Virus record (IMG/VR): IMGVR_UViG_3300027759_003534
Location: 96,001 to 160,000 of that record
Origin: a virus
Reading direction: 5' to 3' (one strand)
Length of the DNA stretch: 64,000 nucleotides
Shown here: positions 19,092 to 48,195 of the stretch, one piece after another
Position numbering within the stretch: the first letter of the stretch is position 1
Layout: each line of letters begins with the position of its first letter
Notes under the pieces: generated by a model
What the model was told of the DNA's origin: nothing
The model's input: the letters and a program-made list of their open reading frames with translations, nothing else
The model's database searches: none
Made by a program: the position numbers and the translations under genes

Positions 19092-19397
19092 ATGAATACT
19101 GACGAACTTGTTGCCTACGCTCGTGCCCGTTTTGACCATGCAACCGCGCGACGCACACTTAAAGAAAAATATCAAGCCAAACTAACAGTTGCCCATGCTG
19201 GCGGAATGTGGTTAGCTGGTCCAGAATTATTGGCTGTATTGGCCGCTTGTGCAGGCCCATCAGCAGTTGTCCTTGACTTATATGACACGCCAGTGAAAGT
19301 AGTGCCTAACGAGTTTCAAGATTTAGTGCGTACTCACTGGCAAGAACAAATGAACGCTTGGCTTGTAGAATACGAAGAGCTTAATCAAAATAGATGA
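19092..19397 (+). CDS. Hypothetical protein
   Basis: 101-aa ORF coupled to the next gene by an ATGA overlap. Confidence 0.7.
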   Translation: MNTDELVAYARARFDHATARRTLKEKYQAKLTVAHAGGMWLAGPELLAVLAACAGPSAVVLDLYDTPVKVVPNEFQDLVRTHWQEQMNAWLVEYEELNQNR

Positions 19398-20149
19398 CAA
19401 CAGGTGCATTAATATTTGCCCGCAATAATGAGCAGATTAACTATGAGGCAATGGCTCACTGGTCGGCTAAGAATATTGAACGACATCTTGGTATCCCAAC
19501 ACACATTGTAACCGATGATTCTGCACCATCTACCAACACAAGACACTTTACAGATGTTGGCCCAGTTACATGGCACAATCTCAATCGCATGGATGCTTAT
19601 CAACTGAGTCCGTGGGATTGCACTCTAGTGCTAGATGCAGACTATGTTGTGGCTAGCGATCAGTTACAATCTGTGCTAGACATAGACCAAGATTTTTTAG
19701 CACATCGCTGGGCGTACGATATTACCGGCAACAACAACTTTGAAGGGCTTAATTACTTTGGAAACAATCGTATGCCCATGTGGTGGGCAACTGTAATGAT
19801 GTTTCGTCGCAGTCGACACGCAGAATTAATTTTTGACTCAATGCAGATGATCCGAGACAACTGGACTCATTATAGGAATTTGTATAAAAATACAAATGCA
19901 ACTTATCGTAACGACCATGCGCTTAGTATTGCCCTAGGCATAGTTAACGGGCATACATTAGATCATGCTGGTATTCCTTGGGCATTGGCCAGTTTAACAC
20001 CTGATCATAAATTAACACAGCTAGATCAAGACAGTTACAGAGTAGATTTTGTAAACACAGAAAATAACCTACGCTGGATAACATTAACACAAGACTTCCA
20101 CGCTATGGGCAAACAACAACTAGGAGAGATCGTTGCCAATCACTGCTGA
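19394..20149 (+). CDS. GT-A fold nucleotide-sugar transferase-like protein
   Basis: 'AYQLSPWDCTLVLDADYVV' carries a DxD motif; paralog of the next gene. Confidence 0.55.
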   Translation: MTTGALIFARNNEQINYEAMAHWSAKNIERHLGIPTHIVTDDSAPSTNTRHFTDVGPVTWHNLNRMDAYQLSPWDCTLVLDADYVVASDQLQSVLDIDQDFLAHRWAYDITGNNNFEGLNYFGNNRMPMWWATVMMFRRSRHAELIFDSMQMIRDNWTHYRNLYKNTNATYRNDHALSIALGIVNGHTLDHAGIPWALASLTPDHKLTQLDQDSYRVDFVNTENNLRWITLTQDFHAMGKQQLGEIVANHC

Positions 20150-20858
20150 ACGCGGTTACTTAATACCTGCAATTGGTGATGTATATGTAGGTTGCGCCAA
20201 CCGGTTAGCAGACAGCATACACCGCTTCCACCCCAACGCCAACGTAACTATTCTTACCAAGGACATGTTGCCCTATGGTGATCAAGGTGGTTACGCCAAC
20301 GACTGGCAAGTGTTTGTTGCTAGTCCCTACAGGCAAACTATTAAACTAGAAGCTGACATGATTTGTGCTAGCCCTATAGATCATTGGTGGCCGCTGTTTG
20401 AACGGCGTGATGTTGTTATTAGCCAAGGTGCTAGAACGTTTTATGATCAACCCGCGGTGTCACGCTACTACAGAAAAATATTTGATGCTAACAAGTTACC
20501 AGACGTTTACAATGCTATTACTTATTGGAGATTAAGTAACACAGCCAAAGAGTTTTTTAATTTAGTTAGACAAATATTTGAACAATGGGATAGCTATAAA
20601 CGAGTATTAAAGTTTCCAGATGATATGCCAACTACTGATGTAGTCTATGCTATTGCGGCAGTTATTATAGGTCCAGAAAACATTACATTGCCTTCTGGTC
20701 TAGGACCAACCATAGTACATATGAAACGCTACATTAACCCTACACAAAGTAACAATTGGACAAGAGAATTAGTCTGGGAAAACAATCCGTTTCGTATTAA
20801 TACAGTAGCACAGTGGGGATTGGTGCATTATCATATCAAGGAGTGGGCAAATGAGTAA
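20133..20858 (+). CDS. GT-A fold nucleotide-sugar transferase-like protein (paralog)
   Basis: 'FVASPYRQTIKLEADMIC' (ExD variant). TTG start is preceded by an AGGAG Shine-Dalgarno. Confidence 0.5.
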   Translation: MPITAERGYLIPAIGDVYVGCANRLADSIHRFHPNANVTILTKDMLPYGDQGGYANDWQVFVASPYRQTIKLEADMICASPIDHWWPLFERRDVVISQGARTFYDQPAVSRYYRKIFDANKLPDVYNAITYWRLSNTAKEFFNLVRQIFEQWDSYKRVLKFPDDMPTTDVVYAIAAVIIGPENITLPSGLGPTIVHMKRYINPTQSNNWTRELVWENNPFRINTVAQWGLVHYHIKEWANE

Positions 20859-21114
20859 AGACGAAGATAAATTTAAACACAGTAAAAGGCTACATAAAGA
20901 CCAGGCCACCATTGAGAAACAATTAAAGATTGCTAAAAGCCATGGCATGACTAATAAGGTTGTTGAAGAGCCACACCGTTTGGCCAAACATCATGCAATG
21001 GATTGTGGCGTTCCTCATTGTCCTATGTGTTCGAATCCAAGGCACAATAAAACAGTTAAAGATCATTTGACTATCCAAGAAAAACGCAATCTTCAAAAGG
21101 CCAAAGATGAGTGA
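20851..21114 (+). CDS. Small basic hypothetical protein with CxxxxCxxC
   Basis: 87 aa, K/H-rich, contains DCGVPHCPMCSNPR. Confidence 0.65.
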   Translation: MSKDEDKFKHSKRLHKDQATIEKQLKIAKSHGMTNKVVEEPHRLAKHHAMDCGVPHCPMCSNPRHNKTVKDHLTIQEKRNLQKAKDE

Positions 21115-21457
21115 TATGACTGAAGAAGAGTTTTGGTTGATCTTACATGCAACACCACAAACTAAGCAAGTATTTTATAGATTATATTACAACAAGGACG
21201 GCTCGCCTATTATCTACAGCATGGAGGACTTGCTAGGTAATTACATAGAAGTTGATCAATCGACATACGTGTTAGCGCCGTTTAATGTTAAGGTAATTGA
21301 CGGTAAACTTGTTTATATTAACCCAACGATTACTGTTAAAAAATTACAACCCACAAACTCAACCGGCACCGCATGCGACCCCCAAGATGTGTGCATAGTA
21401 GTCGATACAGATCAACCACATACAAAATGGAATATAGTAAACAATGAACTCAATTGA
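21107..21457 (+). CDS. Hypothetical protein
   Basis: 116-aa ORF overlapping both neighbours. Confidence 0.65.
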   Translation: MSDMTEEEFWLILHATPQTKQVFYRLYYNKDGSPIIYSMEDLLGNYIEVDQSTYVLAPFNVKVIDGKLVYINPTITVKKLQPTNSTGTACDPQDVCIVVDTDQPHTKWNIVNNELN

Positions 21458-22361
21458 TATAGCAGATTTAGACTGTGTATTTTTAACCTATGATGAACCC
21501 AACAAAGAAGAAACATGGGTTAAAATTAAGAATATGGTTCCTTGGGCCCGCCGTGTAGATGGAGTTAAGGGCAGTGATGCTGCACACAAGGCAGCCGCTG
21601 ATGCTAGTACTACAGATCGATTTGTGTTAATTGACGGAGACAATATTCCCGACGCTAAGTTTTTTAATCTTACCTTAGACACAAACGAGGTTTGTGTGTA
21701 TCGTTGGAGAGCCCGTAATCACATCAATGGGTTGATGTACGGTAATGGAGGCCTAAGCATATGGTCTAAGGAATTTGTATATGCTATGCGTACACACGAA
21801 GCAAGTGATGGCACTACCGAAAACGATGTAGAGTTTTGTTTTTATTCCAACTACTATGCTATGCACGATTGCTATAGTACAACATATCCAAACGGATCGG
21901 CCTTCCAGGCATGGAGGGCTGGCTTCCGCGAAGGTGTTAAGATGTGCTTAAACAAAGGTGCACGTCCTACCTTACAAGAATTTAAACAACGAGTACACCA
22001 ACGCAACTTAGATCATCTTACTATCTGGCACAACGTAGGGCGCGATGCGGATAACGGTATCTGGGCCATAGCCGGAAGTCGCATGGGCACATACATGACT
22101 ATGATTACTCCTCAGTGGGACTATCGTGCTGTACAAGATTTTATAGAGTTAGAAAAGTTATGGGACACAGTAAAGGATGACAATCCTGAAATGTTAGCAG
22201 GCCACGTAGGCGAGCCATTAGTAGAACAGCTAGATTTACCTATCAACATGATTGGCTCAGCCGAAAGCAAATTCTTTAAGCATCACTACCGCAGTAACTG
22301 GCACAACCAAGGAATAATGGTTAAAGAAATTGATGTAATAAGAAATCAGGAAGGCTGGTAA
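21444..22361 (+). CDS. Glycosyltransferase-like protein (GT-A)
   Basis: 'DCVFLTYDEPN', 'FVLIDGD' (DxD) and 'AWRAGFREGVKM'; homologous to the C-terminal domain of 40988-43393. Confidence 0.55.
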   Translation: MNSIDIADLDCVFLTYDEPNKEETWVKIKNMVPWARRVDGVKGSDAAHKAAADASTTDRFVLIDGDNIPDAKFFNLTLDTNEVCVYRWRARNHINGLMYGNGGLSIWSKEFVYAMRTHEASDGTTENDVEFCFYSNYYAMHDCYSTTYPNGSAFQAWRAGFREGVKMCLNKGARPTLQEFKQRVHQRNLDHLTIWHNVGRDADNGIWAIAGSRMGTYMTMITPQWDYRAVQDFIELEKLWDTVKDDNPEMLAGHVGEPLVEQLDLPINMIGSAESKFFKHHYRSNWHNQGIMVKEIDVIRNQEGW

Positions 22362-23062
22362 TGATTATTGCTTTTTATCCTGGCGCTGGCGGAAACAGGT
22401 ATTTACGCATGTTAAAAGAATTAAAATGGACTGACTCAAACACATCATATGATCGATTGGTTAGCGGTCAAGAATTCAAACACAGATATTTAACTGACGA
22501 TGTCAGCAACGGTGCTCAAGATTTTATCTTAACACATTGTTTAAATGAGCCACATATACGTTCAAAATTTCCTAACCACAACATTGTTTTTATACTTGGC
22601 AATTTTAAAAAATGTCTACAACGTGAGTGGATATTAGCTGGACATGAGAGATACATTCAAAAAAACATACAACATACCTATGACTATGATAGGATAGAGC
22701 ACTATAACGCATTTAAAGATAATTCGTGGCCAGCCTGTTTTACTATTAATGATATAGAAAATTTGCCAGTTTCTATTCTTAACGAGATTACTCAAGAGTT
22801 TAAAAAAATACAAAAAAGACAAAATGCCACTAACATGCTAGCTGACCTTGAAAACCGTATAATTGGTAAAGTGAACTCTGCATATGAAATTATATGTTGG
22901 CATAAAAATTATTATGATCAATATCCTTTGTTAATTTCAAATGAGTCTACAGTAATTGATATTAATTGTGATGAGGATATTTTTTCAAAAACAATGCAAA
23001 AAGAATTAGACTTCTACAACAGCGAAATATTTGATGAAGTGTGGAAGGAATTAAATGTCTAA
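22361..23062 (+). CDS. Hypothetical protein, possibly sulfotransferase/P-loop-like
   Basis: N-terminal 'IIAFYPGAGGN' Gly-rich loop; AT-rich DNA. Confidence 0.35.
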   Translation: MIIAFYPGAGGNRYLRMLKELKWTDSNTSYDRLVSGQEFKHRYLTDDVSNGAQDFILTHCLNEPHIRSKFPNHNIVFILGNFKKCLQREWILAGHERYIQKNIQHTYDYDRIEHYNAFKDNSWPACFTINDIENLPVSILNEITQEFKKIQKRQNATNMLADLENRIIGKVNSAYEIICWHKNYYDQYPLLISNESTVIDINCDEDIFSKTMQKELDFYNSEIFDEVWKELNV

Positions 23063-24086
23063 AGTAAACGCATTCAATGGGTTTGATAAGTTAACAGAAG
23101 TATGGTTAGGCGATGTTTATCCAACGGATTTTTATCAAGATTTTGATTCAGAAGTTCGAGATGCCTTTGAACAAATTACCGCGATGACTATTGAAGATCT
23201 TTCCAAGATACAAACAGTTTTAGAATCAAAAAATGTTAAGGTACAACGTCCTCAATTTAGTTCAAATCTTGAAAATTATCTCAACGATTCTGGAACTTTA
23301 ATAAAACCTCCAATAATGCCTAGAGACACTGAATTATCCTTGGGTAATACGTTCTATCATTTAAGATCTGATTACAAAATAGATCCTTGGCAAAAACAAA
23401 TTGATGCTATGCTAGACAATGGAGTAGACATAAAAGTTGGACCATCCGGAAATGATTTATCTTGTATACAGCCACCTAGTATAGTTCGTTGCGGCAATGA
23501 TCTTTATGTTGACATTGATTCGCATAAGCATGTGATGCCTCAAATCGCGTTAACTTTAATAGAATGGTCGAAACAGTATAGGGTTCACTTGATTTCTACA
23601 GGTGGACATAGCGATGGTGTATTCTGTCCAATTCGTGAAGGATTACTTATTACCACTCACTGGATAGACGATTACAAAAAAACATTTCCGGGATGGGAAG
23701 TATTTAAAATACCCCGGGAGCTTACTGGTATTGCTGGATCTTTACAGAATTGGTGGGTTCCGGAGATACAAATTTCGTCAAACAGTTTATTTGCAAAACA
23801 TATAGAAGAAAGAGCAATAGATTGGGTTGGAAATTATCAAGAAACGCAATTTAGTGTCAACATGCTGGTTGTTGATCATAATACAGTGATTGCCGTAAAT
23901 CAAAATCCTGTGTTGACTGAATTTTTAACCAAAAAAGGAATAGAAGTAATTATTGTTGATTTTAGATGTAAAGAATTTTGGGATGGTGGTATGCATTGCC
24001 TAACGTGTGATACTCAACGCAATGGCTTGATTAAAAATTATTTTCCAGAGCGCCCAGTTGCAAACTATTTAGATTGGATAAAATGA
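23055..24086 (+). CDS. Amidinotransferase (glycine / inosamine-phosphate amidinotransferase family)
   Basis: 'FDKLTEVWLG', 'PPIMPRD', 'GGHSDGVF' and C-terminal 'FWDGGMHCLT' match the family pattern with catalytic Asp/His/Cys. Confidence 0.75.
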   Translation: MSKVNAFNGFDKLTEVWLGDVYPTDFYQDFDSEVRDAFEQITAMTIEDLSKIQTVLESKNVKVQRPQFSSNLENYLNDSGTLIKPPIMPRDTELSLGNTFYHLRSDYKIDPWQKQIDAMLDNGVDIKVGPSGNDLSCIQPPSIVRCGNDLYVDIDSHKHVMPQIALTLIEWSKQYRVHLISTGGHSDGVFCPIREGLLITTHWIDDYKKTFPGWEVFKIPRELTGIAGSLQNWWVPEIQISSNSLFAKHIEERAIDWVGNYQETQFSVNMLVVDHNTVIAVNQNPVLTEFLTKKGIEVIIVDFRCKEFWDGGMHCLTCDTQRNGLIKNYFPERPVANYLDWIK

Positions 24087-25495
24087 ACAACAAAGGCGAC
24101 GAAAGTGTAAACAATAAAAGCAAGTTTCTCAGCGGTGCCGAGGAAATGCAAAATCTGCTTGGCCCAGCACTTTGTCTGGCCAAATGGAAACAGGTTAGTT
24201 TACATTTACCCACGGGCCTTAACAACAGTTGTTATCATCCTCCACTACACCCTATTCCCGCTGAGTTGTTGACTGATAATCCTGGTGCGCTACACAATAC
24301 TCCACACAAAAAAGAACAGCGCAAGATCATGTTACGGCAAGAACGCCCTAGCGAATGTAGTTATTGCTGGGCTATGGAGGACAATGACAAGTTAAGTGAT
24401 CGTCATTATCGCAGTGGTGAGCCATGGGCTGCCAAATACTTTGATATTATAACCAATTCAAATGGAGATGAAGATGTCATACCTAGTTATGTGGAAGTTA
24501 ACTTTAATCATGCTTGTAATTTGGCATGTAGTTACTGTAGTCCTCAATTTAGTTCAACTTGGCAACAAGAAATGGATCAGCATGGCGCTTACCCTACTAG
24601 CACTAGACACAACGATCCTAGTCATTTTGTTGGTCGCAATCGGCCTATCCCAGTTCGCGAGCATAATCCCTATGTAGAAGCTTTTTGGGCCTGGTGGCCT
24701 ACGCTTTATCCAGAACTAGAGCACTTTCGTATGACCGGTGGTGAGCCCATGTTGGACAAGAACACGTATAGAGTGTTTGATTATGTATTAGCCAACCCTA
24801 AACCCAACTTGCATTTAAACGTAACCAGTAATTTCAGTGTAGATGAAAAGACTTGGCAAAAGTATAAGGGATATGTAAAAGAATTATGCAAAGGTGAGCG
24901 GATTGAACACTTTATGCAGTTTGTTAGTCTGGACAGCTTCGGTGATCAAGCAGAATATATTAGACACGGCTTGGACTTTGATCTGCTGTGGGATCGTGTA
25001 AATCAATTCTTAACAGAGATACCTGGACGTAATTCAATTACCTTTATTGTGACTATGAATAATCTTAGTGTAACAGGATTACCGCACCTGTTTGCTGGCA
25101 TACTAGGCCTGCGTAAGTTATACAGCAAGACATATCAGCGTGTGTGGTTTGACACACCTGTGCTCAGACAACCCACATGGCAAAGCCTACAACTGCTACC
25201 AGAATCGTATGTGGATCAACTTGAACAACTTTGGGCTTGGATGATTCGTCAAATTGAAACAGAAGAAACTCGTTTCCACGGATTTAAAGACTACGAGATT
25301 GCTCGCTTGGACAGAGATATTGCCTGGATGCGTGATGGACAAAAGTTGGATCCTGCTGTGATCAATTGTAATAAAGCAGACTTCTATAGATTCTTTGCAG
25401 AAGCTGATCGCAGACACAGTACAAACTTCTTAAAAACTTTTCCAGAAATGACAGCTTGGTGGAAAGAATGCAAATATTATGCTAAACAATCATAA
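24083..25495 (+). CDS. Radical SAM protein with N-terminal twitch-like domain (copy 1)
   Basis: CNLACSYC (CxxxCxxC) and TGGEP; N-terminal CLAKW...SCYHP...CSYCW. ATG 24083 overlaps the upstream stop. Confidence 0.85.
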   Translation: MNNKGDESVNNKSKFLSGAEEMQNLLGPALCLAKWKQVSLHLPTGLNNSCYHPPLHPIPAELLTDNPGALHNTPHKKEQRKIMLRQERPSECSYCWAMEDNDKLSDRHYRSGEPWAAKYFDIITNSNGDEDVIPSYVEVNFNHACNLACSYCSPQFSSTWQQEMDQHGAYPTSTRHNDPSHFVGRNRPIPVREHNPYVEAFWAWWPTLYPELEHFRMTGGEPMLDKNTYRVFDYVLANPKPNLHLNVTSNFSVDEKTWQKYKGYVKELCKGERIEHFMQFVSLDSFGDQAEYIRHGLDFDLLWDRVNQFLTEIPGRNSITFIVTMNNLSVTGLPHLFAGILGLRKLYSKTYQRVWFDTPVLRQPTWQSLQLLPESYVDQLEQLWAWMIRQIETEETRFHGFKDYEIARLDRDIAWMRDGQKLDPAVINCNKADFYRFFAEADRRHSTNFLKTFPEMTAWWKECKYYAKQS

Positions 25496-26618
25496 AATTG
25501 TATTAAACAATTTTTGTGAAATTGATCGTCTTATCCGCCCATTTGCCGATGACGAGTTTTACGATTTAACCAAGCACACTATAGTACCAGGCGCCATATA
25601 CATAATTGGCCGAGAGCAATTTACAACTAACCGACAGCTTATTAAACAATTAGTTGATAGCGGTACTATACGAGCAGTATTATGTAATCCTGCCGAGGGG
25701 TCTGAGTCAATGTATTGGTTATATCAGACATTAGGAATAGGCAATTTTACCAAACATGCCGCTGTTATCACTGGCGGATATTTGCCCGATGGTATTCCGC
25801 ATATGTACCATGAACATTTTCTACCGTTGATATTAGATTACGATGAAAACATAAAAGCTATAGAAGATTATAAAAACAGAAAAACAACCGACCGCCCTTA
25901 CAAATTTTTATTTTTAAATGGTAGATTGCGTGTACACCGAAAATATCTATTAGAATATTTTAGATTAACTGGGTTGTTAGACCAAAGTCTCTGGACAAAT
26001 CTAGACCATAGAAATAGTCAGCCACCAAAACTAAAATTAGAACATAACGGACAAGATCTTATCAATAGTCCATTTCCTGTACACTATCTACCAGCCCAAT
26101 ATGAGATCGACCGTTATCAACAACAAGCAGTTAAAGTGCCAACAGAGTTATCGGGCGACCTGGCTGCCAAACGATATTTGTTTAACAACGAATGGGGCGA
26201 CATTTATATTGCACCCGCGCCTTACCTAGACACTTATTTTAGTTTAGTAACCGAAACAGTATTTGATTATCCGTATACATTTAGAACAGAAAAAATTTGG
26301 AAACCTATAGCAATTGGACATCCGTGGATTGCCGCTACTAACCGTGGCTATTATAGAGATATGCACAACCTAGGATTTAAAACTTTTGGACACCTAATTG
26401 ACGAAAGTTTTGATCAAATAGAAAATGGTCAAGATAGAATTGAGCGTATAACTCAAGTAGTGGAGGATCTTTGCCGGCAGGACCTTCCAGCTTTCTTAAC
26501 AGCAGCCAAAGATGTGTGTAAATACAATCAACAATTGCTTGCGGAGTTAAGGATTAAAGTCCGCAGTGAGTTTCCTGATCGTTTCCACCAATTTATTAAT
26601 CAACAATTCAATGCATGA
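25479..26618 (+). CDS. GT-B / GT10-like glycosyltransferase-like protein (copy 1)
   Basis: 'FSLVTET...RTEKIWKPIAIGHPWI...GFKTF..LIDESFD', shared with 38521-39732 and 39714-40985. Confidence 0.45.
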   Translation: MLNNHKIVLNNFCEIDRLIRPFADDEFYDLTKHTIVPGAIYIIGREQFTTNRQLIKQLVDSGTIRAVLCNPAEGSESMYWLYQTLGIGNFTKHAAVITGGYLPDGIPHMYHEHFLPLILDYDENIKAIEDYKNRKTTDRPYKFLFLNGRLRVHRKYLLEYFRLTGLLDQSLWTNLDHRNSQPPKLKLEHNGQDLINSPFPVHYLPAQYEIDRYQQQAVKVPTELSGDLAAKRYLFNNEWGDIYIAPAPYLDTYFSLVTETVFDYPYTFRTEKIWKPIAIGHPWIAATNRGYYRDMHNLGFKTFGHLIDESFDQIENGQDRIERITQVVEDLCRQDLPAFLTAAKDVCKYNQQLLAELRIKVRSEFPDRFHQFINQQFNA

Positions 26619-29630: not shown

Positions 29631-29632
29631 TC

Positions 29633-36045: not shown

Positions 36046-36046
36046 C

Positions 36047-39732: not shown

Positions 39733-40985
39733 AGGGTCTTTAACATTTGCTTTAATTCAACCTCTAGCACATCCCTGAATCCACCACGGTAGAAATGGTT
39801 CCAGTTGTGCTCTACTACAGGCAAAAGATCTTGTTGCAGTTGCTTTTTCGCAGCAGCGCTTCGCGCATCTATCTCTAGTAATAGCTGGGCCACGGCCTCG
39901 ATTCTTAGCACTGGGTCAGTTATGGTATCGTAGGTTTCATCTATATACGGAGCAAATGTTCTAAATCCGTATTCTCTCAAGTATTCGAGACTGTGTGCGG
40001 GTGCTACCAGAACAAACGGCATTTCTAATGCTATTGCTTTGAATGTTTTTTCTGTCAAGTGAGTTCTGCGCCCAAAATACACTGTTTCAGTGGGCACATA
40101 TATCATACTGTCGGCCGCTTCGGCCCAGTTGCCCAATTGATAACTGTGCATCAGTTGTTCTGCTTCGCCCTCAAATGTACAGGGCAAATCAGCCTGTTTA
40201 AACACTTGCTCTATGTCGGGATATATGTTATTATACTTGCTAGCCACTTGGCTTATATCTACACCTTCGTACTGGCAGAATCTTGGTGCTGATATATGGT
40301 TATGTTGCAGGTTGTTTTTGAATATGTTATAAAGGAATAGCACACGATGATCTCTTTTACCACCCACAATACGATTGGGACTCATAAAGGTCTGTTGTGG
40401 ATCTCGATCTCTTGCACGGGCTATTAAATATGTTTGATCATATCCGCGGAACCAATCTAAACAAGCCCATCCGTGATAAAAATAATAGTGTGCTGTCCAA
40501 CCGTATTGTTTGGTCAATTCTTCAACATATTCGCCCTTTTCTGACACTACAATATGTCCCAAGTTAAACAGTTCGGTATTGTGTTTTCTAAACTCGGTAA
40601 ATTTATCACGGCTATTTCTATAAAAATCAATAGCATTGCTGGGCTGACTCATAATAGCTTGTTTGGCCTGTGCTTGATAGTCAGTATCGGGCCAGTTTAA
40701 TCTGGGGTTAACTAGGTGATCTGCAATGCTGTTTTGAGATAATATTAAATCGTAATTTCTCAACAGCACTTCGTCAAATAACGGTTTAAAAATGTCCAAA
40801 TGTACAGGTTCTTGATCGTGAAAGTATATGTAATCAGTTTCTACTGCATCATCACTGCCCATGTTAAATAAACAATCAGGGCTGGTATTGCCCGGTGGAT
40901 CACAAAAAAATACTCTAGTTCCAGATTTATTTTGCTCTATCCAGGGCCAGAAAGTATTGTTGTATATTTCGTCTATTCTAATCAT
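39714..40985 (-). CDS. GT-B / GT10-like glycosyltransferase-like protein (copy 3)
   Basis: 'YVPTETVY...HLTEKTFKAIALEMPFV...GFRTF..YIDETYD'. Confidence 0.45.
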   Translation of the reverse strand: MIRIDEIYNNTFWPWIEQNKSGTRVFFCDPPGNTSPDCLFNMGSDDAVETDYIYFHDQEPVHLDIFKPLFDEVLLRNYDLILSQNSIADHLVNPRLNWPDTDYQAQAKQAIMSQPSNAIDFYRNSRDKFTEFRKHNTELFNLGHIVVSEKGEYVEELTKQYGWTAHYYFYHGWACLDWFRGYDQTYLIARARDRDPQQTFMSPNRIVGGKRDHRVLFLYNIFKNNLQHNHISAPRFCQYEGVDISQVASKYNNIYPDIEQVFKQADLPCTFEGEAEQLMHSYQLGNWAEAADSMIYVPTETVYFGRRTHLTEKTFKAIALEMPFVLVAPAHSLEYLREYGFRTFAPYIDETYDTITDPVLRIEAVAQLLLEIDARSAAAKKQLQQDLLPVVEHNWNHFYRGGFRDVLEVELKQMLKTLCSDLS

Positions 40986-40987
40986 TT

Positions 40988-43393
40988 ATGTTTGATATCT
41001 TTTATTCGGGAACTAAACCCAACTTATTTGCTCACGAGCGTGAAGCTCGAGATATAGAGCATGCACGGACTCTAAGTCGTACTAGGTATTTTTGGTGGAC
41101 CAATTATTTAACTGACTACACAGACTTTGACTTTTTATTTGAGCCGGTGCCGTGGCAAGCAGAATATACTCATACTTGGCCCAGTCAATGGCATGAGTAT
41201 TCGGGCACTTATCTTGTACCCGTAAATAATACACAAATACAATATTATTTTAATCAGCAAATACTGCCAAATCGAGATAGTAGCGGCAATTATAATAAAA
41301 TAAAAGATAATATTGGCTTTGATTATACCTGGGCACCACATCCGTTTGATCCGCCATTTAATTACGTTTTTGGTAATCAATGGTATCCAGCAAATAAAAT
41401 GCCCACAGTAGAATATCGGATGCCAGGCGCAGAAGAAACAAAATATATTTTTACTCCCAGAGCAGAGCTATTATCTAACAAAGACGATTGTTGGCAGACT
41501 TTAATTGCGTGTGAGTTTGATTATTCGTGGGTGCCCGATCCTGGCGACCCACCTTATATTTACATATTTGGTAATCAGTGGTGGCCTGCTGTTAAAATGC
41601 CCACAGTAAAATATACTGTGCCCGGTGCAACTGAAATAAAGTATATGCCTTATCCTAGGGCACAATTACTAATTAAAAATAATCAAGATAATTGGGAAAT
41701 ACCTGCAGATATTGATGCAGAAACATTTGATTATTCGTGGGTGCCCGATCCTGGAGATCCGCCGTTGGTATATCAATTCGGCACACAATGGCAAAAAACT
41801 GGTGGCCCTAAATATCGTGTAGCAGGTGCAACGGAAATAAAGTACATTACAGAACCCAGAGCTGATAAAATTGTGCAAGATAATAATTGGACAATTCCGG
41901 ATAATGTAGATACTAGTTCATTTGATTTTACCTGGCATCCGGACACAACAGAACAACCCTACATATATCAATTTGGTACACAGCATCAACGCACAGGTGG
42001 CCCACAATATCATGTTAAAGGCGCAACAGAAATCAAATATATTGATCAAATTAAAATTAAAACAGAGCGTGTTGCGTCTGCTATCTACGAAATAGATCAT
42101 TTAGATGGTGCTGCAGGGCAACGTGCTGATGTGTTTCGAACTGTTAGATATTTTGACAATTATTTAGATACATTAAAACGCATAGCTAAAAATGCTCCAG
42201 ATGATCAGGAGTTTGTTTGGATTTGCTCCAGCATCTGTGATTATAAAGATTTTGACTTTACATGGCATCCAGAAGTATGGCAAGCAGGTATGCTACATGT
42301 ATTTCCCAGTGATGGAGAAAAGTTTGGAGATACTTTCTTTATGCATGTTCCATCATTTCAATATCGTGCAGATAAGTTACAGTTATTGGATTGGTATGAT
42401 GTTAATTATATGGATAAGAGTGTGCCACGCAGACCCGTGCCCATCGTACGACATAATTATGATACACATGTAGAAGCAGTTAAACAAATAAATTTCGATG
42501 GACCCTTGGCTATTTTTACTACCGAAGATAAGCCGGATTATAATATACCCGCTGTTCCGCTGTGGAGAGAAAAGACCAAAACTATTGTGCCGTTAAGTGC
42601 TGGCGCTGGAATAACTATAATTCCTAAAGTGTGTGTTCCTTATATAAAGACGCAATTATATGATTATCCCAATATACTTCGTACACAGCGGCATTTATAT
42701 TCAGATACTCCGTTAGACATAGTGTTTATAGATAATGGCGAATCGAATGCAGAACAAAATTGGACATTTTTAAATATAACAACCGCAAATAATAATAATC
42801 GAATACATCGCAGTTCAGGAGTCACGGGTCGAGTTGCAGCTTATCGTGCGGCTGCAGAATTAAGTACCACTCCTTGGTTTTTTGCTGTATTTGCTAAATT
42901 AAAAATTGATCCCTTATTTAATTTTAATTGGCAACCTGATCGTTTACAGGAACCTAAGCATTATATTTTTCATGCACAAAATCCTGTAAATGCATTAGTA
43001 TATGGACATCAAGCCATGATAGCATATAATAAACAATTGGTATTGGAAAATACTGCACTGGGATTAGACTTTACCCTAGATCAAGCACACGAAGTAGTTC
43101 CTATCGTTTCAGGAACAGCTAATTATCACACAGATGCTTGGTCATGCTGGCGTACAGCATTTAGAGAATGTATTAAATTACAAAATAGTCCAGATGTAGA
43201 AAGTCAGTATCGTTTACGTCAATGGCTTACTAAAGATACTACCGAAGAACAATGGAGTCTTAAAGGTGCAGAAGATGCTGTGGAATATTACGATAGTGTT
43301 GCGGGAGACTTTGCTGAATTGAAGAAAAGCTATGACTGGGCCTGGTTGGCTAGTTATGCTTTGTTAAAGCGGAATCTAATACCGAGTCAATAA
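40988..43393 (+). CDS. 801-aa protein with W/P-rich internal repeats and degenerate GT-A-like domains
   Basis: Four repeats of about 65-70 aa. The C-terminal domain is homologous to 21444-22361 ('LDIVFIDNGESN', 'CWRTAFRECIKL'). It is an isolated + strand gene in a minus-strand block. Confidence 0.6.
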   Translation: MFDIFYSGTKPNLFAHEREARDIEHARTLSRTRYFWWTNYLTDYTDFDFLFEPVPWQAEYTHTWPSQWHEYSGTYLVPVNNTQIQYYFNQQILPNRDSSGNYNKIKDNIGFDYTWAPHPFDPPFNYVFGNQWYPANKMPTVEYRMPGAEETKYIFTPRAELLSNKDDCWQTLIACEFDYSWVPDPGDPPYIYIFGNQWWPAVKMPTVKYTVPGATEIKYMPYPRAQLLIKNNQDNWEIPADIDAETFDYSWVPDPGDPPLVYQFGTQWQKTGGPKYRVAGATEIKYITEPRADKIVQDNNWTIPDNVDTSSFDFTWHPDTTEQPYIYQFGTQHQRTGGPQYHVKGATEIKYIDQIKIKTERVASAIYEIDHLDGAAGQRADVFRTVRYFDNYLDTLKRIAKNAPDDQEFVWICSSICDYKDFDFTWHPEVWQAGMLHVFPSDGEKFGDTFFMHVPSFQYRADKLQLLDWYDVNYMDKSVPRRPVPIVRHNYDTHVEAVKQINFDGPLAIFTTEDKPDYNIPAVPLWREKTKTIVPLSAGAGITIIPKVCVPYIKTQLYDYPNILRTQRHLYSDTPLDIVFIDNGESNAEQNWTFLNITTANNNNRIHRSSGVTGRVAAYRAAAELSTTPWFFAVFAKLKIDPLFNFNWQPDRLQEPKHYIFHAQNPVNALVYGHQAMIAYNKQLVLENTALGLDFTLDQAHEVVPIVSGTANYHTDAWSCWRTAFRECIKLQNSPDVESQYRLRQWLTKDTTEEQWSLKGAEDAVEYYDSVAGDFAELKKSYDWAWLASYALLKRNLIPSQ
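41316..42040 (+). repeat. Intragenic tandem repeat (4 units, about 200 bp period)
   Basis: Protein units FDY(T/S)WxPxPxDPPxxYxFGxQW...PxxxYxxxGAxExKY. An identical 29-bp DNA copy TTTGATTATTCGTGGGTGCCCGATCCTGG sits at 41516-41544 and 41726-41754. Confidence 0.85.
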
Positions 43394-44435
43394 CGTATTC
43401 TACTTCTAGATCTGTTAATTCAGGATATAAGGGTAAACTTAATACTCGTCTACTTAAACTACTAGCAACACTTAATATATCAGTACCAGTATAATCTGAA
43501 TAAGCAGGTAACTCGTGCAAGGGCTGTCGATAATGTACTCGAGTTTCAATACCTTTTATATCTAAATTACGTGCAAGTATATCTCTAGCATCTACATCAA
43601 TAACAAATTTGTGATAACAATGTGTTTCAAAGTTATTTGCATCAATTAAACTTCTAACTCCGCTATTCTTTAAACGGCCCATCCAATATAATGCAATCGT
43701 CTTGCGACGAGCTTGCCACGCATCAATATACCGTGTTTTAATTAACATTTGCGCAGACTCTGTTTCACTCATACGACTATTTGTTCCTATATTGGTATGA
43801 GCAGGCTTTCCATTATTTGTCCACTCGCGGGCAAATTCCAACAAGTCCATGTCATCGGTTACAACAGCGCCGCCATTGCCGTAGGCATTTAAGTTTTTCA
43901 TAGGATCAAAACTAACGGCAGTAGCATTACCTATTCTATTACAGTTGTTGCTTAACCAATGTTGAGCACCATCTTCTATAATTAAATCTGTGCCCCAAAA
44001 GCGATCAGCATTTACTGCTGCACCGTATAAGCCAACCAACACAGTTGCTTGTACGCTTAGGTCGTGTGGTATTTTATTTTTGTTTAATAAGCCATGTGTG
44101 TCTGTATCGGCAATATATACTTCCCAACCAGCTCGCATAAATGCATTGGCAGTGGCCACATAAGTCATTGCAGGTACGACCACCCTGGGTGGATTTGTGC
44201 TGGTTTGTGCGCGATAGTATTCGGCTATTATTTCTAAGGCTTGACTACCCGAGTGACAGGTCACAGCATACTTAGAGTGATTCTTTCGAGCTAACCAGTT
44301 TTCAAATTCAGCAGTATAATTGCCCGCCATGAGTTGACCCGAACGTAGCACTTCATCGGTGGCATCTAAGATCTCTGTGCGGAGATTATTATACTGTTTT
44401 TTGAGCCCAGTAAAGGGAATTTTAAGCCCGTTCAT
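43350..44435 (-). CDS. DegT/DnrJ/EryC1/StrS-family PLP-dependent sugar aminotransferase
   Basis: 'VLRSGQLMAG', 'IIEDGAQ', 'VSFDPMKNL..YGNGGAV' (PLP lysine), 'RVLSLPLYP'. Confidence 0.9.
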   Translation of the reverse strand: MNGLKIPFTGLKKQYNNLRTEILDATDEVLRSGQLMAGNYTAEFENWLARKNHSKYAVTCHSGSQALEIIAEYYRAQTSTNPPRVVVPAMTYVATANAFMRAGWEVYIADTDTHGLLNKNKIPHDLSVQATVLVGLYGAAVNADRFWGTDLIIEDGAQHWLSNNCNRIGNATAVSFDPMKNLNAYGNGGAVVTDDMDLLEFAREWTNNGKPAHTNIGTNSRMSETESAQMLIKTRYIDAWQARRKTIALYWMGRLKNSGVRSLIDANNFETHCYHKFVIDVDARDILARNLDIKGIETRVHYRQPLHELPAYSDYTGTDILSVASSLSRRVLSLPLYPELTDLEVEYVIDSVLDSALTKHN

Positions 44436-44437
44436 TA

Positions 44438-45397
44438 TTATCTATTAAAATAAGGTGAATCTTTAATCCATTTATAGTACCTTTGGAACCCTTCTTCAAC
44501 ATCAACTTTAGGATCGTAGCCAAGAATTACTCTAGCACGATTGATATCTAATGCTCCGCGACTGGGAAAGTCTGCACTTTTGTCTTGAACTTCTACTGTT
44601 CCTTTGCCTACAATTTCAACAATCATTTCTGCAGCTTTTAATAGTGTAACTGAATGTGATTTTGTAATATTATATATGCGATTGGCACTCATGATACGGG
44701 TAGTGGCACTGACAATTCCGTCAACAACGTCGTCAACGTAGGTAAAGTCCAGGGTTTCCTCTGCACCATTTACTCGAAGGATTTCTCCGCGCATGGCAGA
44801 CAGCATGAATTTTGAAACAACTCGATCCTCGACATCAAGAGGACCATACACAGCACTGGGACGAATAATAGTATAATCAAAAGCCCCGCGACGATGGTAA
44901 TCTTTGACCAGTTGTTCTCCTGCCAGTTTCATAATGCCATATTGTCCAATAGGGTTGCATTCACTGTCCTCGGCAACCTGATCTTCAAAATCACCATATA
45001 CCATTGAACTGCTAATATAAACAACACGTTCTACTTTATGACGTTTGGCACTCTCTAGAACATTAATCAAGCCTTCCATCATGACTTGCGCACCCCACGC
45101 AGGATCGGCATTGACTACTTTTTGCCTGGGAAAACTAGCCAGGTGTATAACTGTATCTGGTTTATGCTCACGCACGACCCAATCAATTCCGTCGCGATCA
45201 GTGATATCAATTTGATAAATTCTATCTGTGACAATCTTTTTACGACGCTCGGCTATCAAGTAATCCAGTTCTGCTTGTGGCACAATACCATAGGTAGTTC
45301 TGGTATCGGTAATCACACAGGTATGACCCTTTGCTTCCAGGGCAGCCACTACATTGTGTCCAATAAATCCTAAACCGCCGGTTACTAATATTTTCAT
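44438..45397 (-). CDS. NAD-dependent NDP-sugar epimerase/dehydratase (extended SDR)
   Basis: 'KILVTGGLGFIG', 'YISSSMVYG', 'YGIMK' (YxxxK), 'IRPSAVYGP'. Confidence 0.9.
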   Translation of the reverse strand: MKILVTGGLGFIGHNVVAALEAKGHTCVITDTRTTYGIVPQAELDYLIAERRKKIVTDRIYQIDITDRDGIDWVVREHKPDTVIHLASFPRQKVVNADPAWGAQVMMEGLINVLESAKRHKVERVVYISSSMVYGDFEDQVAEDSECNPIGQYGIMKLAGEQLVKDYHRRGAFDYTIIRPSAVYGPLDVEDRVVSKFMLSAMRGEILRVNGAEETLDFTYVDDVVDGIVSATTRIMSANRIYNITKSHSVTLLKAAEMIVEIVGKGTVEVQDKSADFPSRGALDINRARVILGYDPKVDVEEGFQRYYKWIKDSPYFNR

Positions 45398-45921
45398 AAT
45401 TCTGGCTCATTAAATGTCATGCACTGTAATCCCAGTCTGGGAAATACAATATTTTCTTCGCACCAAACATCATGCGGTATTCCTGCGTTGATAACACACG
45501 GAGCAATCACTTCCATACGACCAATTTCTTCAAGCTCGTTGGGATTAGTAAACTGTTGTCCGCCTAGAGAATTTACAGTAACAGTAGGATTTAAAACCGT
45601 TGTACGGAACCATCGATTAAATGTTCCAGCAGTATTGTGTATAGGCCAACTCAGCTTGTTCACAGCCGGCAGAGTATCAATGTGAATTCCACAACATTCT
45701 CTGGTTTGCCCCACAGTCAGTGCTACAGAATGCAACTTTAATCCCACACCGTTGGCCCAGATATAAAATTCAGGAGCTGCCTTTAGAAACTCCACAGTGT
45801 TGAGGGGATTCCAAAACTGAGTAGTTGATTCAACAATGCCAGTTGATTGCACATAGGACTTTATCTGTTGATTGATATGATCATAATTTGCGCAATCTAA
45901 TTTTTTATATAGTTTAATCAT
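45394..45921 (-). CDS. Hypothetical protein, possible cupin/2OG-Fe(II)-like
   Basis: 'GIHIDT' and 'INAGIPHDV' (HxD...H). Start placed at ATG 45921 to avoid a long overlap. Confidence 0.35.
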   Translation of the reverse strand: MIKLYKKLDCANYDHINQQIKSYVQSTGIVESTTQFWNPLNTVEFLKAAPEFYIWANGVGLKLHSVALTVGQTRECCGIHIDTLPAVNKLSWPIHNTAGTFNRWFRTTVLNPTVTVNSLGGQQFTNPNELEEIGRMEVIAPCVINAGIPHDVWCEENIVFPRLGLQCMTFNEPEL

Positions 45922-47491
45922 ATCCCATGGCCTTGGCAATTTCTTTGTGTGTACTAGAGAAATTTTCATTTCTCCAATGATCCTTTTGCTTCATCTCTTG
46001 TATAAATGTTGTGTTGTCTGAGTATTTTTGCTCTTGTAGCAGGCACAATACCGACTGTATTTTTTTCCTGGCTTCGTTGTTGAATTTCCACTGAGACAAT
46101 TTGTTCAAGGTCATTAGTCTGGCCTGCTCGGTTAAATTACTTACGCTGAGATACTCTGGATGAGTCAGCAAGTTTAGATAATAATGATCAAACTGTTGAC
46201 GGTCTATCCACTCAATCAGTTCGGGTAGATAAAATACATTCTGAATATTTACTGTAACACACACGCCTATTTTTAATTTTGAGTTGGCAGATCTTATCTG
46301 TTTAAACTGATCTAGGTTAGCAACAACCAAATCCCAGTCAGCACCCTTGCGTTCATAGTTGAATTTTTCCCCGACGTTGTCTATACTAACAGTGACCACT
46401 AGCCTTTTAAATTGATCCACTTGCTTAAAGATATCTGGGCACAGAGTACCATTGGTAGTAATATCAAATATACAGTCCTGACTGTGTCCTTGATCTATCA
46501 AATACTGCATAAAATCTAAATTCTGTTTTAGCATAAGTGGCTCGCCACCTAAAAACTCAAACACTTTGATTTGCCCGGCACGCTGTTTAAGTGAATCCCA
46601 AAACTCGTTTTTCTTTTTTGCCCAGCTGGTGTTTTCGGTCCATTGATAAGCAGGATGCTGTTTGCGTTGATCTTGTGGTATCTGAGACAACTGCTCAGCT
46701 GCCACAGTTGAACTAAAACTTGGATCGCAAATGCGACATTTTAGATTGCACAAGTTTCCAAGATGCCCACCCACATAACGCAAGTTGTTTGAGACATCAT
46801 TGCTTTCCCAATCAATTAGTCCCCAAATATTTTCTAATCTATAAGAAGACAATGTACGACGCGAATCAACGCCCATCTGTTCTCTTTTGGTGCAATTTGC
46901 ACAACCCACAGGATCAATATTGTTTCTCATCTGATCTCTAACATTGCTCATGTAATCACTAGAGACTATGGTTTCAATTGAGTGTTGTTTGATATTGTAC
47001 GGAACACCGTCTGGGTCTGTGATTGTTCCTTTGTAATCACAGCATACTCCGGCTGTGCCATCAGTCCAGACATGCAATCCAGCCCAGGCATGAGCACACA
47101 TTTTTTTGTTGGCGTTGAACAGTGGAATTGTATCTAAACACAGCACGTCAGTTCTTGTTACCTGTGTTTGATGTACAGTAATTGGAGAAGTCAGTGATCT
47201 AAAAAAATCTGCTGTTTGATGTTGATTGGTATAAATTTCAACAAAGTAGGGACTGATGTCAAGATAGTTAATTATACTAGCAACATGATCTAGTGTTGCC
47301 GGTTGTAACGGTTTAGCATTACATAAAATAAATCTATAATTGTTGTTGTAGGCCGTCTGTTGAAATGATACTAGGGTTTTATAAAATGTAGAACTGGGAC
47401 TGTGTTCAAGATCCTCAAGAAAGATCCAGCAATCAACTTTATATTGTTTACTTAAATCACTTTTAAGTTGCTCAAACTCTATTATTTTCAT
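45914..47491 (-). CDS. Radical SAM / twitch protein with extra N-terminal domain (copy 7)
   Basis: CNLKCRIC and LGGEP; MCAHAW...GVCC...CANC. The N-terminal extension resembles that of 27939-29630. Confidence 0.85.
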   Translation of the reverse strand: MKIIEFEQLKSDLSKQYKVDCWIFLEDLEHSPSSTFYKTLVSFQQTAYNNNYRFILCNAKPLQPATLDHVASIINYLDISPYFVEIYTNQHQTADFFRSLTSPITVHQTQVTRTDVLCLDTIPLFNANKKMCAHAWAGLHVWTDGTAGVCCDYKGTITDPDGVPYNIKQHSIETIVSSDYMSNVRDQMRNNIDPVGCANCTKREQMGVDSRRTLSSYRLENIWGLIDWESNDVSNNLRYVGGHLGNLCNLKCRICDPSFSSTVAAEQLSQIPQDQRKQHPAYQWTENTSWAKKKNEFWDSLKQRAGQIKVFEFLGGEPLMLKQNLDFMQYLIDQGHSQDCIFDITTNGTLCPDIFKQVDQFKRLVVTVSIDNVGEKFNYERKGADWDLVVANLDQFKQIRSANSKLKIGVCVTVNIQNVFYLPELIEWIDRQQFDHYYLNLLTHPEYLSVSNLTEQARLMTLNKLSQWKFNNEARKKIQSVLCLLQEQKYSDNTTFIQEMKQKDHWRNENFSSTHKEIAKAMGYD

Positions 47492-47727
47492 TTGCCCCAC
47501 CGTAGTAAGTATTCTGTGGCTAATTGATCTTCTACTAGACCGTACACAATGATTTTGTGTCCCCAGTTGTGTTCATCGGCTCGTACAATGTATTGTGGGT
47601 CTGAACAGTTTTTCATCGCCCACTGACCTTGTTCTGTTTGTTGCCACTCATATAATGGTTGTGCGACATAGAGTTCTGGATCCTCTACATCGCCCATACT
47701 AAAAGAATGGAATGTAATTTTTTGCAC
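47488..47727 (-). CDS. Small protein, possible outlying member of the 54660-56844 paralog family
   Basis: Ends ATEYLLRWGK. Confidence 0.65.
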   Translation of the reverse strand: MQKITFHSFSMGDVEDPELYVAQPLYEWQQTEQGQWAMKNCSDPQYIVRADEHNWGHKIIVYGLVEDQLATEYLLRWGK

Positions 47728-48195
47728 TTATTTTTTCTTGTGCAATTCTGCTGTTGCCACACGTTGGCGCAGTCCTGAACTACTAAAACTATGATCTCGT
47801 CCATTAAAAATTGGAACAATACCGCGAACAGTTCCTTCTTTTTTACCAGTATATTCTTTGTCTTGATACTCAACACCAAGTACACGAACATCCAACGGAA
47901 GTATTAGCAATAGGTCTACTAGATCCTGTTCGGTTTGATATACTACTACTTCATCCACATAACGACATGCAGCCAGCTGTATTTGACGCTCCACAATACT
48001 TTGAACTGGTTTGTTCTTGGTATCAGGACGATCAATTGTTGGATCTGTTTGCAAGCCAGCAATCAAATAATCGCAATGATTCTTTGCTTCAGCCAACATG
48101 GCAATATGTCCTGCGTGTAACATGTCAAAGGTACTGAAGGTAATGCCAATCTTTTTACCTTCTTCTTTGAGTTTACGTATGTGATTGAATATCAT
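47728..48195 (-). CDS. Cytidylyltransferase (TagD/glycerol-3-phosphate cytidylyltransferase-like)
   Basis: 'FSTFDMLHAGH' (HxGH), 'LIAGLQTD', 'RYVDEVV', 'RDHSFSSSGLR'. Confidence 0.85.
   Translation of the reverse strand: MIFNHIRKLKEEGKKIGITFSTFDMLHAGHIAMLAEAKNHCDYLIAGLQTDPTIDRPDTKNKPVQSIVERQIQLAACRYVDEVVVYQTEQDLVDLLLILPLDVRVLGVEYQDKEYTGKKEGTVRGIVPIFNGRDHSFSSSGLRQRVATAELHKKK

Follow-up and report, generated by a model that had tools for sequence, protein, structure and literature searches.

A conserved phage island of N-terminal-twitch radical SAM and sugar-tailoring enzymes located beside virion genes

The DNA analysed here (the window) is a stretch of 64,000 nt comprising bases 96001–160000 of the IMG/VR virus contig IMGVR_UViG_3300027759_003534. 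It carries an island of about 29 kb, starting at position 19092, in which seven radical SAM (S-adenosylmethionine; rSAM) genes lie among genes for sugar-tailoring enzymes. Direct observations are the families of these enzymes and their catalytic motifs, the lack of membrane steps, the sorting of the rSAM proteins into orthologous groups, and the placement of the island beside virion genes. The interpretation that we favour, tentatively and with somewhat less than even confidence, is that the island encodes enzymes which make an extensively modified amino-sugar glycan in the cytoplasm and attach it to fibre or tail proteins of the virion. The enzyme classes needed for making amino-, guanidino- and carbamoyl-sugars were all present, as had been claimed in a previous reading of the DNA letters and open reading frames (the sequence-only reading). 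That reading likened the island to an aminoglycoside pathway; its general class, sugar tailoring rather than DNA modification, has held, and its aminoglycoside framing has not.

The contig is 182,566 bp long (CheckV completeness 49%). Among its close relatives are two genomes that are complete and carry terminal repeats (337 and 344 kb) and another two rated 98% complete (340 and 354 kb); these are referred to below as the four complete relatives and, together with the present record, as the five genomes. Since the close relatives measure 337–354 kb, the source is a freshwater jumbo phage of about 340 kb. Hallmarks of T4-type phages (a TerL N-domain, a UvsX/RecA-like gene and a gp32-like gene) were found elsewhere in the record, and the phage origin assumed at the outset was borne out for this 182.6-kb fragment of a ∼340-kb lineage. 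A megablast search that used 20 kb of island sequence as the query found no match among 50,697 phage records. The families described below were assigned by Pfam, NCBIfam and PHROG scans of the window proteins.

All seven rSAM genes recognized by the sequence-only reading proved to belong to the NCBIfam family NF033640 (N_Twi_rSAM), with scores of 274–406 bits against a cut-off of 170. Six lie on the + strand: rSAM 1 (24074–25495; 303 bits), which has a 33%-identical orthologue in the Ralstonia jumbo phage RsoM2USA, rSAM 2 (26566–27942; 294 bits), rSAM 3 (27939–29630; 390 bits), rSAM 4 (29633–30961; 406 bits), rSAM 5 (30958–32181; 342 bits), which shows a minimal architecture and has more than 7800 metagenome relatives, and rSAM 6 (32159–33463; 274 bits). 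The seventh is on the – strand (45914–47500; 296 bits). An additional N-terminal domain is present in rSAM 7 and also, as the alignment indicates, in rSAM 3, where it spans about 165 residues. The CxxxCxxC motif (C153/C157/C160) and four N-terminal cysteines (C39, C58, C99 and C102) were invariant in an alignment of all seven proteins, and Pfam placed a SPASM/twitch-like domain ahead of the Radical_SAM core in five of them. All seven have the twitch domain at the N-terminus, which makes them a family separate from BtrN and NeoN, to which they had been compared.

The island rSAM paralogues are old. They share only 20–33% identity in BLASTP comparisons, except for rSAM 4, a duplicate of rSAM 3 (52% identical), and each has its own orthologue in relatives, at 63–91% identity (tblastn). 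Because both cluster motifs and these separate orthologues have been kept in spite of the low identity between paralogues, the seven proteins probably have distinct, retained roles. The rSAM 3/4 pair appears to be a lineage-variable position of the array, since most relatives keep only one of the two types (the second in loci L001–L015, the first in L017–L022 and L037–L038). Above the cut-off, NF033640 was found at 11 places in the record, seven of them in the island, and complete relative genomes contain 9–13 paralogues each, several in tandem, amounting to about 3% of the genes of this lineage, which is abundant in fresh water. A literature search on NF033640/N_Twi_rSAM found no paper. The solved structures nearest to the rSAM cores were those of viperin, BlsE and MoaA (E-values from 6e-6 to 2e-3), which are nucleotide- or nucleoside-acting enzymes.

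The location of these enzymes next to fibre genes, plus weak secondary matches to the SPASM peptide maturases PapB, StsB and CcpM, could also indicate that they act directly on virion proteins, epimerizing or cross-linking fibres in the manner of maturases of ribosomally synthesized and post-translationally modified peptides (RiPPs), the glycan genes then serving a separate function. We consider this very unlikely. The peptide-maturase models of NCBIfam scored only about 20–40 bits on the island rSAMs, far below their cut-offs, against 274–406 bits for NF033640, and neither a RiPP recognition element (RRE)-type domain nor a precursor peptide turned up, although no dedicated search for them was made.

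The neighbours of bacterial homologues also bear on this point. A single rSAM query retrieved no relatives, and an alignment of five paralogues did. In a collection of species genomes, homologues with 26–31% identity were found mostly in Bdellovibrionales, Bacteriovoracaceae and Bacteroidota, often in tandem arrays. Several loci of Bdellovibrionales and Bacteriovoracaceae (L087, L094, L134, L075 and others) hold chromosomal tandem arrays of 5–10 N-twitch rSAM homologues; unannotated genes are interspersed in these arrays of predatory bacteria, and a carbamoyltransferase is present in a few of the loci. Two N_Twi copies of Poseidonocella sedimentorum are accompanied by FdtA, an NDP-hexose 2,3-dehydratase, two B12-rSAMs, an EryCIII-type glycosyltransferase (GT) and a polyketide synthase (PKS), those of Paenibacillus by an acyl carrier protein (ACP), ketosynthases (KS), a short-chain dehydrogenase/reductase (SDR) and a GT2 enzyme, and those on a Bdellovibrionales chromosome by a GT-B enzyme and a methyltransferase; the context in Reichenbachiella was uninformative. 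Among the 113 nearest neighbours at 30 bacterial N_Twi loci, GT2 was the commonest family other than rSAM. These contexts, made up of glycosyltransferases and sugar enzymes and not of peptide, protease and ABC-transporter sets, therefore favour sugars or other small molecules over peptides as substrates.

The same contexts would suit the production of a free small molecule, that is, a metabolite of the aminoglycoside, nucleoside or guanidino-sugar type directed against the host, competitors or a defence system. The enzyme classes of the island parallel those of aminoglycoside tailoring, the bacterial homologues occur in natural product-like clusters of the PKS/deoxysugar and ACP/KS/GT2 kinds, viperin, BlsE and MoaA are the closest solved relatives of the rSAM cores, and the authors who described phage S-SCSM2R called similar genes ‘antibiotic synthesis genes’ (PMC12801897). 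Against this, searches of the five genomes with PF01761 (the dehydroquinate synthase/2-deoxy-scyllo-inosose type) and PF01658 (inositol-1-phosphate synthase) revealed no cyclitol-forming enzyme in any of them (the controls were matched), Pfam scans and hydropathy plots of the island showed no gene for export or self-resistance, and seven GT-like genes exceed what such a pathway would usually need. A free metabolite is thus a quite unlikely product. With no cyclitol-forming enzyme in the five genomes, the aminoglycoside/aminocyclitol reading is not supported; the analogy covers enzyme classes only.

The enzymes that would supply and decorate the sugar were identified with differing precision, and every island match to a specific sugar-equivalog model of NCBIfam fell under its cut-off. 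A NodU/CmcH-type carbamoyltransferase (34573–36045, + strand), anticipated as NodU/TobZ-type, matched both PF02543 (E-value 1e-38, 131 bits) and PF16861 (E-value 1e-47, 162 bits) above the gathering scores; its score for the NodU equivalog was 129 bits, well below the cut-off of 1000. One copy of this gene was present in each of the five genomes. The predicted DegT/StrS aminotransferase was found to be a pyridoxal phosphate-dependent enzyme of the DegT/PseC type (43350–44435, – strand; PF01041, E-value 3e-55), PseC being its best NCBIfam match, under the cut-off. Next to it, the NDP-sugar epimerase corresponds to a GalE-like SDR (44438–45397, – strand; PF01370, E-value 4e-48; NCBIfam matches under cut-off). 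The label ‘epimerase-type’ is fair, because the protein has an SSSMVYG segment and a YxxxK motif in place of the dehydratase TDEVYG, and so lacks the DE pair.

The supposed cytidylyltransferase (47728–48195, – strand) is a sugar- or polyol-phosphate nucleotidylyltransferase with an HxGH motif (PF01467); its nearest NCBIfam model is the adenylyl-transferring domain II of RfaE (TIGR02199, heptose-1-phosphate adenylyltransferase; 78 bits, cut-off 181.5), ahead of glycerol-3-phosphate cytidylyltransferase. Two amidinotransferases had been proposed, and both have the fold and the catalytic Cys motif. Copy 1 (23055–24086, + strand) is divergent, and it alone gave matches to the arginine-deiminase family, which were weak (PF02274, 21.3 bits against a cut-off of 22.8, and a sub-threshold match to NF002381). 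Copy 2 (37494–38528, – strand) had no Pfam or NCBIfam match and is conserved at 78–93% in relatives. Both belong to phrog_25854, are 29% identical to each other and contain the invariant C-terminal motif FWDGG..C.T.D (G-G-x-x-C-x-T-x-D); residues C329, H190, D97 and D192 were invariant in the alignment. The G+C content dips to 35% at 22001–24000 (surroundings, about 42%), across amidinotransferase copy 1 and the preceding gene (22361–23062, + strand), whose product had no family match and is poorly conserved in relatives. Conservation within the + strand block is lowest for these two genes, and the low-G+C patch (22361–24086) is possibly a later insertion.

About seven GT-like proteins had been counted, of which five were supported: two weakly, as GT8-like, and three as GT-B enzymes. 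The GT8-like pair consists of a GT-A candidate with a DAD motif (19394–20149, + strand) and a distant paralogue with an EAD motif (20133–20858, + strand; phrog_1903). Both have homologues in RsoM2USA (30% identical for the first), neither had a Pfam match, and their only PDB profile matches were weak ones to glycogenins (E-values from 0.007 to 0.2). For the GT-B enzyme encoded at 38521–39732 (– strand), an AlphaFold2 (AF2) model (pLDDT 79, pTM 0.82) was compared with solved structures using Foldseek; all 25 matches at an E-value ≤0.001 were GT-B enzymes, among them T4 beta-glucosyltransferase, with TM-scores of just 0.3–0.5. The product of 39714–40985 (– strand) is a paralogue, related to it in BLASTP through its C-terminal part (E-value 1e-12), and that of 25479–26618 (+ strand), a GT-B family candidate with an ET...TEK motif, was linked to the 38521–39732 family by paralogy (hhalign probability, 99.8%). 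The ET..TEK motif of the latter raised a suspicion of kinship to GT10 fucosyltransferases; what emerged is the GT-B fold only.

The remaining two, named DGD proteins, showed no GT signal. The first (21444–22361, + strand) is highly conserved (67% mean column identity in the alignment), and a 37%-identical protein lies beside the rSAM gene of RsoM2USA. It showed no profile relation to any PDB entry and, in hhalign, none to the GT8-like profile, and the 120 relatives listed of the 8000 scored were all hypothetical proteins lacking a Pfam domain. The second is a protein of 801 residues (40988–43393, + strand) with no Pfam match, in which residues 576–731, towards the C-terminus, are homologous to the first (BLASTP).

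Comparison of all window ORFs with 64 viral loci (tblastn) showed that the island genes co-occur in relatives; a failure to do so would have counted against the sequence-only reading. Most of the block is present at 45–95% identity in more than 25 IMG/VR contigs. The conserved part comprises the two GT8-like genes, the DGD gene, six tandem rSAMs, a GT-B gene and the gene for a 343-residue protein, followed by the carbamoyltransferase, an amidinotransferase, two more GT-B genes and the 801-residue protein. Outside the close lineage too, N-twitch rSAMs were located within 10 kb of a carbamoyltransferase homologue (46–76% identity) in 29 of 38 viral loci. A minimal version of the island, in the same order, exists in the cultured phage RsoM2USA (343.8 kb), where ORF354–ORF348, all annotated as hypothetical, encode a small protein, the two GT8-like proteins, an unrelated small protein, a DGD protein, an N-twitch rSAM and a DGD-like protein. 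This module lies a few genes downstream of ORF361 (>288 kDa), ORF359 (tail sheath) and ORF356, whose products were all identified by mass spectrometry in purified virions (PMC8504454). XacN1 is another cultured relative that carries this module. Two contigs of a metagenome-assembled genome assigned to ‘Haliscomenobacter sp.’ (NZ_JBBAKG010000003.1 and NZ_JBBAKG010000001.1; 148 and 183 kb) also carry the island, at 64–66% identity, and their combined length is about that of one jumbo-phage genome. Most likely they derive from a phage and were binned with the bacterium, which would be either a mis-binning or a clue to the host.

In the window as well, the island follows virion genes. Upstream of it lie a gene for a 4915-residue protein with CBM_5_12 and FG-GAP modules and then three genes for smaller, Thr-rich tail or fibre proteins. 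The large protein (1192–15939, + strand) is of virion type, contains three CBM_5_12 modules along with the FG-GAP repeats, and gave short matches to RsoM2USA ORF361. The last gene of this structural operon (18037–19020, + strand) is kept in relatives and encodes a fibre-like protein rich in Thr, Gly, Ala and Ser (33% Ser plus Thr), a candidate glycan acceptor. A terminator-like hairpin (19040–19059, + strand; 8-bp stem with four GC pairs, T-rich tail) divides the structural operon from the island, and the first island gene (19092–19397, + strand) encodes a small conserved protein with one hydrophobic segment and a homologue at the same position in RsoM2USA. The start given by the sequence-only reading is thus upheld; its end, at position 48195, was arbitrary, and sugar genes run on to 54651, beyond ThyX. 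In a promoter scan, neither sigma-70-like sites nor the T4 late motif TATAAATA exceeded the number expected by chance. The sequence CAATAAATG is common to the regions upstream of the tail gene at 16740 and of the first island gene; with these two copies as its only ones in the genome, it is too rare to be of use.

Beyond 48195, the – strand encodes a GDSL/SGNH-like protein (50576–51052; PF13472, E-value 3e-5, weak and below the cut-off), a GT2 glycosyltransferase (53016–54029; PF00535, E-value 2e-10) and a sugar N-acetyltransferase of the NeuD/PglB/VioB family with hexapeptide repeats (54001–54651; TIGR03570, 144 bits, cut-off 160.8). Together with DegT, these genes resemble the usual amino-sugar N-acetylation branch.

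The RfaE-II-like, NeuD/VioB-like, GT2 and DegT genes are also typical of O-antigen pathways. The island might accordingly be imagined to remodel the host envelope, with modified nucleotide sugars or short glycans being placed on lipopolysaccharide (LPS), capsule or S-layer by the host machinery, the effect being a block to superinfection or an altered cell surface during a long latent period. That of RsoM2USA lasts 270 min, and the ‘host recognition clusters’ of pelagimyophages and cyanomyophages, with GT, LPS-type and radical SAM cassettes beside tail fibres, have been read in this way (PMC7029224), although that surface-modification idea is a proposal only. The island enzymes had no transmembrane segment, no hydrophobic 19-mer exceeding the threshold in a crude hydropathy scan; judged by hydropathy only, the island thus contains no integral-membrane enzyme, flippase, polymerase, ligase or polyprenyl-phosphate priming transferase. 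The lack of membrane segments disfavours a self-contained lipid-linked envelope pathway, and we regard remodelling of the host envelope as fairly unlikely.

Hypermodification of DNA or RNA, in which sugars and amidino and carbamoyl groups would be placed on nucleobases to evade restriction, appears highly improbable. Consistent with it are the presence of ThyX and a nucleotidylyltransferase at the island edge, the occurrence of other N_Twi copies amid replication genes, the T4 beta-glucosyltransferase among the structural matches of the GT-B enzyme, and the radical SAM and carbamoyl chemistry reported for phage DNA modification (PMC5889632 and PMC7261163). However, DpdA was found in none of the five genomes, nor was any hydroxymethylase of the ThyA family, one relative having an ordinary ThyA. 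The earlier remark that the window has no recognized base-activating enzyme can thus be extended to the four complete relatives as regards DpdA and ThyA-like hydroxymethylases. A search for Tet/JBP proteins gave no match, and its control gave none either.

Glycosylation of virion proteins therefore keeps the first place. Since no membrane segment, DpdA, hydroxymethylase or cyclitol synthase was found, a soluble acceptor is what remains, and fibre and tail proteins would be the most economical one, because adjacency to virion genes has been kept between two distant phages, the present one and RsoM2USA. The pathway that can be proposed is built throughout on the known chemistry of the families. 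The HxGH nucleotidylyltransferase would activate a sugar phosphate; the GalE-like SDR and the N-twitch rSAMs would then perform oxidation, epimerization or deoxygenation at specific C–H positions of the sugar. In the rSAMs, the CxxxCxxC cluster would cleave SAM to yield a 5′-deoxyadenosyl radical, and the N-terminal auxiliary cluster might accept an electron. The DegT enzyme would convert a keto group into an amine, which could be N-acetylated by the NeuD/VioB-type enzyme or receive an amidino group from arginine through the Cys-dependent amidinotransferases and so become a guanidino group. The carbamoyltransferase is expected to O-carbamoylate a hydroxyl via carbamoyl-AMP. GT8-like enzymes may prime the acceptor and GT-B enzymes lengthen the glycan. 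A single glycan that is both guanidinylated and carbamoylated is plausible. A more specific version, possible and yet rather doubtful, is that the N-twitch rSAMs form a virus-expanded family for tailoring glycans or NDP-sugars, shared with predatory Bdellovibrionales, in which each paralogue attacks a different C–H bond during the building of a guanidino/carbamoyl glycan of the virion fibre.

Several observations weigh against glycosylation of the virion. The product, its acceptor and the timing of expression can at most be inferred from the sequence. In T4-like phages, the vicinity of tail genes is the usual site of hypervariable accessory cassettes (PMC7029224). The giant fibre protein shows no excess of sequons, there is no 4,6-dehydratase signature to supply the aminotransferase by the classical route, the assignment to GT8 is weak, and the fold of the two DGD proteins is unexplained. 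In addition, four or five more N_Twi_rSAM copies are found elsewhere in the record amid UvsX-like, gp32-like, TerL, 5′–3′ exonuclease and homing endonuclease-like genes; because these extra copies sit among genes for replication, recombination and packaging, the family is not tied to virion genes. Four of these genes lie at 5616–19035 (locus L154) and 167138–168205 (locus L155) of the record, and a broken copy with two stop codons was detected at 9706–10593. Homing endonuclease-like ORFs of the GIY-YIG (SegE-like) and NUMOD3 types adjoin the extra copies, which suggests that the family spreads as mobile accessory cargo. A gene of the UDP-glucose/GDP-mannose dehydrogenase family (record 169305–170546; L155:9305–10546) is located two genes from another N-twitch rSAM, and L155:1151–2206 encodes an rSAM of the conventional kind, with SPASM at the C-terminus.

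If the N-twitch rSAMs do help to build a guanidino/carbamoyl glycan of the fibre, the chemistry of that virion glycan would have no characterized precedent. NF033640 is a curated family that is biochemically blank, and assignment of its reaction would open new radical chemistry of sugars or of other substrates. Decorated virions would imply that the glycan chemistry of shielding or receptor binding in phages can go far beyond the additions of simple hexoses described to date, with consequences for phage host range and for the immune recognition of phages. The minimal module of RsoM2USA provides an experimental handle, which the metagenomic lineage lacks.

Several island genes remain to be described. 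The 343-residue product of 33447–34478 (+ strand) is enzyme-like: its AF2 model (pLDDT 95) shows a barrel resembling that of cyclophilins, interrupted by a helical insert, and His, Asn and Lys residues are invariant. Comparison with cyclophilins gave middling VIA-align Z-scores of 7–8, which may reflect a common arrangement. Sequence-profile searches of PDB and Pfam found nothing, Foldseek found no PDB match, and the lead from an ESM Atlas feature search, DUF6339, reached 0.78 only. The protein is a member of an extensive family without a name, which forms 732 clusters at 50% identity. The fusion partners in this family have neither a Pfam domain nor a match in the island, and nothing could be learnt from two of its bacterial contexts. 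One fused relative, 27% identical, lies between N-twitch rSAMs and a carbamoyltransferase, with one gene intervening. Immediately downstream, a putative ORF of 33 codons (34475–34576, + strand), noticed on reading the sequence, overlaps both neighbours by ATGA.

Two further products on the + strand had been termed SGNH-like and sulfotransferase-like. The first (36047–36781), a putative SGNH protein, has an N-terminal GDS motif, recognized by eye only, and the second (36824–37489) is at most a putative sulfotransferase; neither had a family match. No family match was obtained either for a small conserved protein (21107–21457, + strand), present in at least 14 loci, or for the product of 45394–45969 (– strand), where an HxD...H pattern was noted by eye only.

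A DUF2201 metallopeptidase-like/VWA protein (51646–52938, – strand) and, near it, a MoxR-type AAA ATPase (56914–57999, – strand) are encoded in the stretch that separates the sugar genes from the early region. A 385-residue protein (58355–59512, – strand) gave a marginal match, below the cut-off, to DarT, the single-stranded DNA thymidine ADP-ribosyltransferase (E-value 0.0096). It is followed by a phage-encoded periplasmic tricarboxylate receptor of the TctC/Bug family (59516–60535, – strand; PF03401, E-value 1e-57). The TctC/Bug family is expanded in Burkholderiales, and this gene, together with the kinship to the Ralstonia phage RsoM2USA, hints at a betaproteobacterial host. A check for identity with amoC-carrying phages returned no match, as did its control.

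Several known systems resemble the island in part. Viruses that glycosylate their own virions include mycobacteriophages, with capsid and tail glycans, and Mimivirus, with a viosamine/bacillosamine pathway for its fibrils; virus-encoded virion glycosylation was reportedly also the subject of Freeman et al. 2023, as cited in PMC12619734. In the mycobacteriophage and Mimivirus systems, virion proteins are decorated by soluble GTs and nucleotide-sugar enzymes (an aminotransferase and an N-acetyltransferase), classes that are present in the island too; we know of no radical SAM, amidinotransferase or carbamoyltransferase component in either. In aminoglycoside tailoring (BtrN/NeoN, StrS/BtrS, StrB1 and TobZ), the enzyme superfamilies are the same as in the island, and the sequence of rSAM oxidation, transamination and amidination, plus O-carbamoylation, would be chemically coherent and common to both. 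Unlike those systems, the island has no cyclitol synthase, and its twitch domains are N-terminal where theirs are C-terminal. The island can usefully be compared with aminoglycoside pathways in its chemistry, but it is not one of them. The closest family, NF033640, is curated with no assigned reaction, and the island rSAMs have its architecture, in which a Cys-rich twitch/SPASM-like domain at the N-terminus precedes the CxxxCxxC core.

Among phages, Campylobacter phages CP220 and CPt10 contain five radical SAM genes and a putative amidinotransferase in an interchangeable block to which no function was given (PMC2853527). This module combines rSAMs and an amidinotransferase as the island does; however, no carbamoyltransferase or GT set was reported there, and tblastn with an island rSAM and amidinotransferase did not match CP220 or CPt10, indicating no detectable sequence relation. 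In pelagimyophages and cyanomyophages, GT, LPS-type sugar and radical SAM genes adjoin the tail fibres (PMC7029224), like the island. Cyanophage S-SCSM2R carries DegT, rSAM and amidinotransferase genes, and its amidinotransferase homologue was detected in purified virions (PMC12801897); its ‘glycine amidinotransferase’ (ORF266), which lies among KdsA, KdsB and GT genes, is 29.5% identical to amidinotransferase copy 2 of the island. The pelagimyophage, cyanomyophage and S-SCSM2R cassettes are smaller and variable, whereas the island spans about 29–35 kb, is conserved across a jumbo-phage lineage, and additionally contains the carbamoyltransferase and the conserved protein encoded at 33447–34478. 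Since three similar modules (that of CP220/CPt10, the pelagimyophage cassettes and that of S-SCSM2R) have been reported with no product assigned, the island can be viewed as a large, conserved variant of a recognized, uncharacterized phage accessory module.

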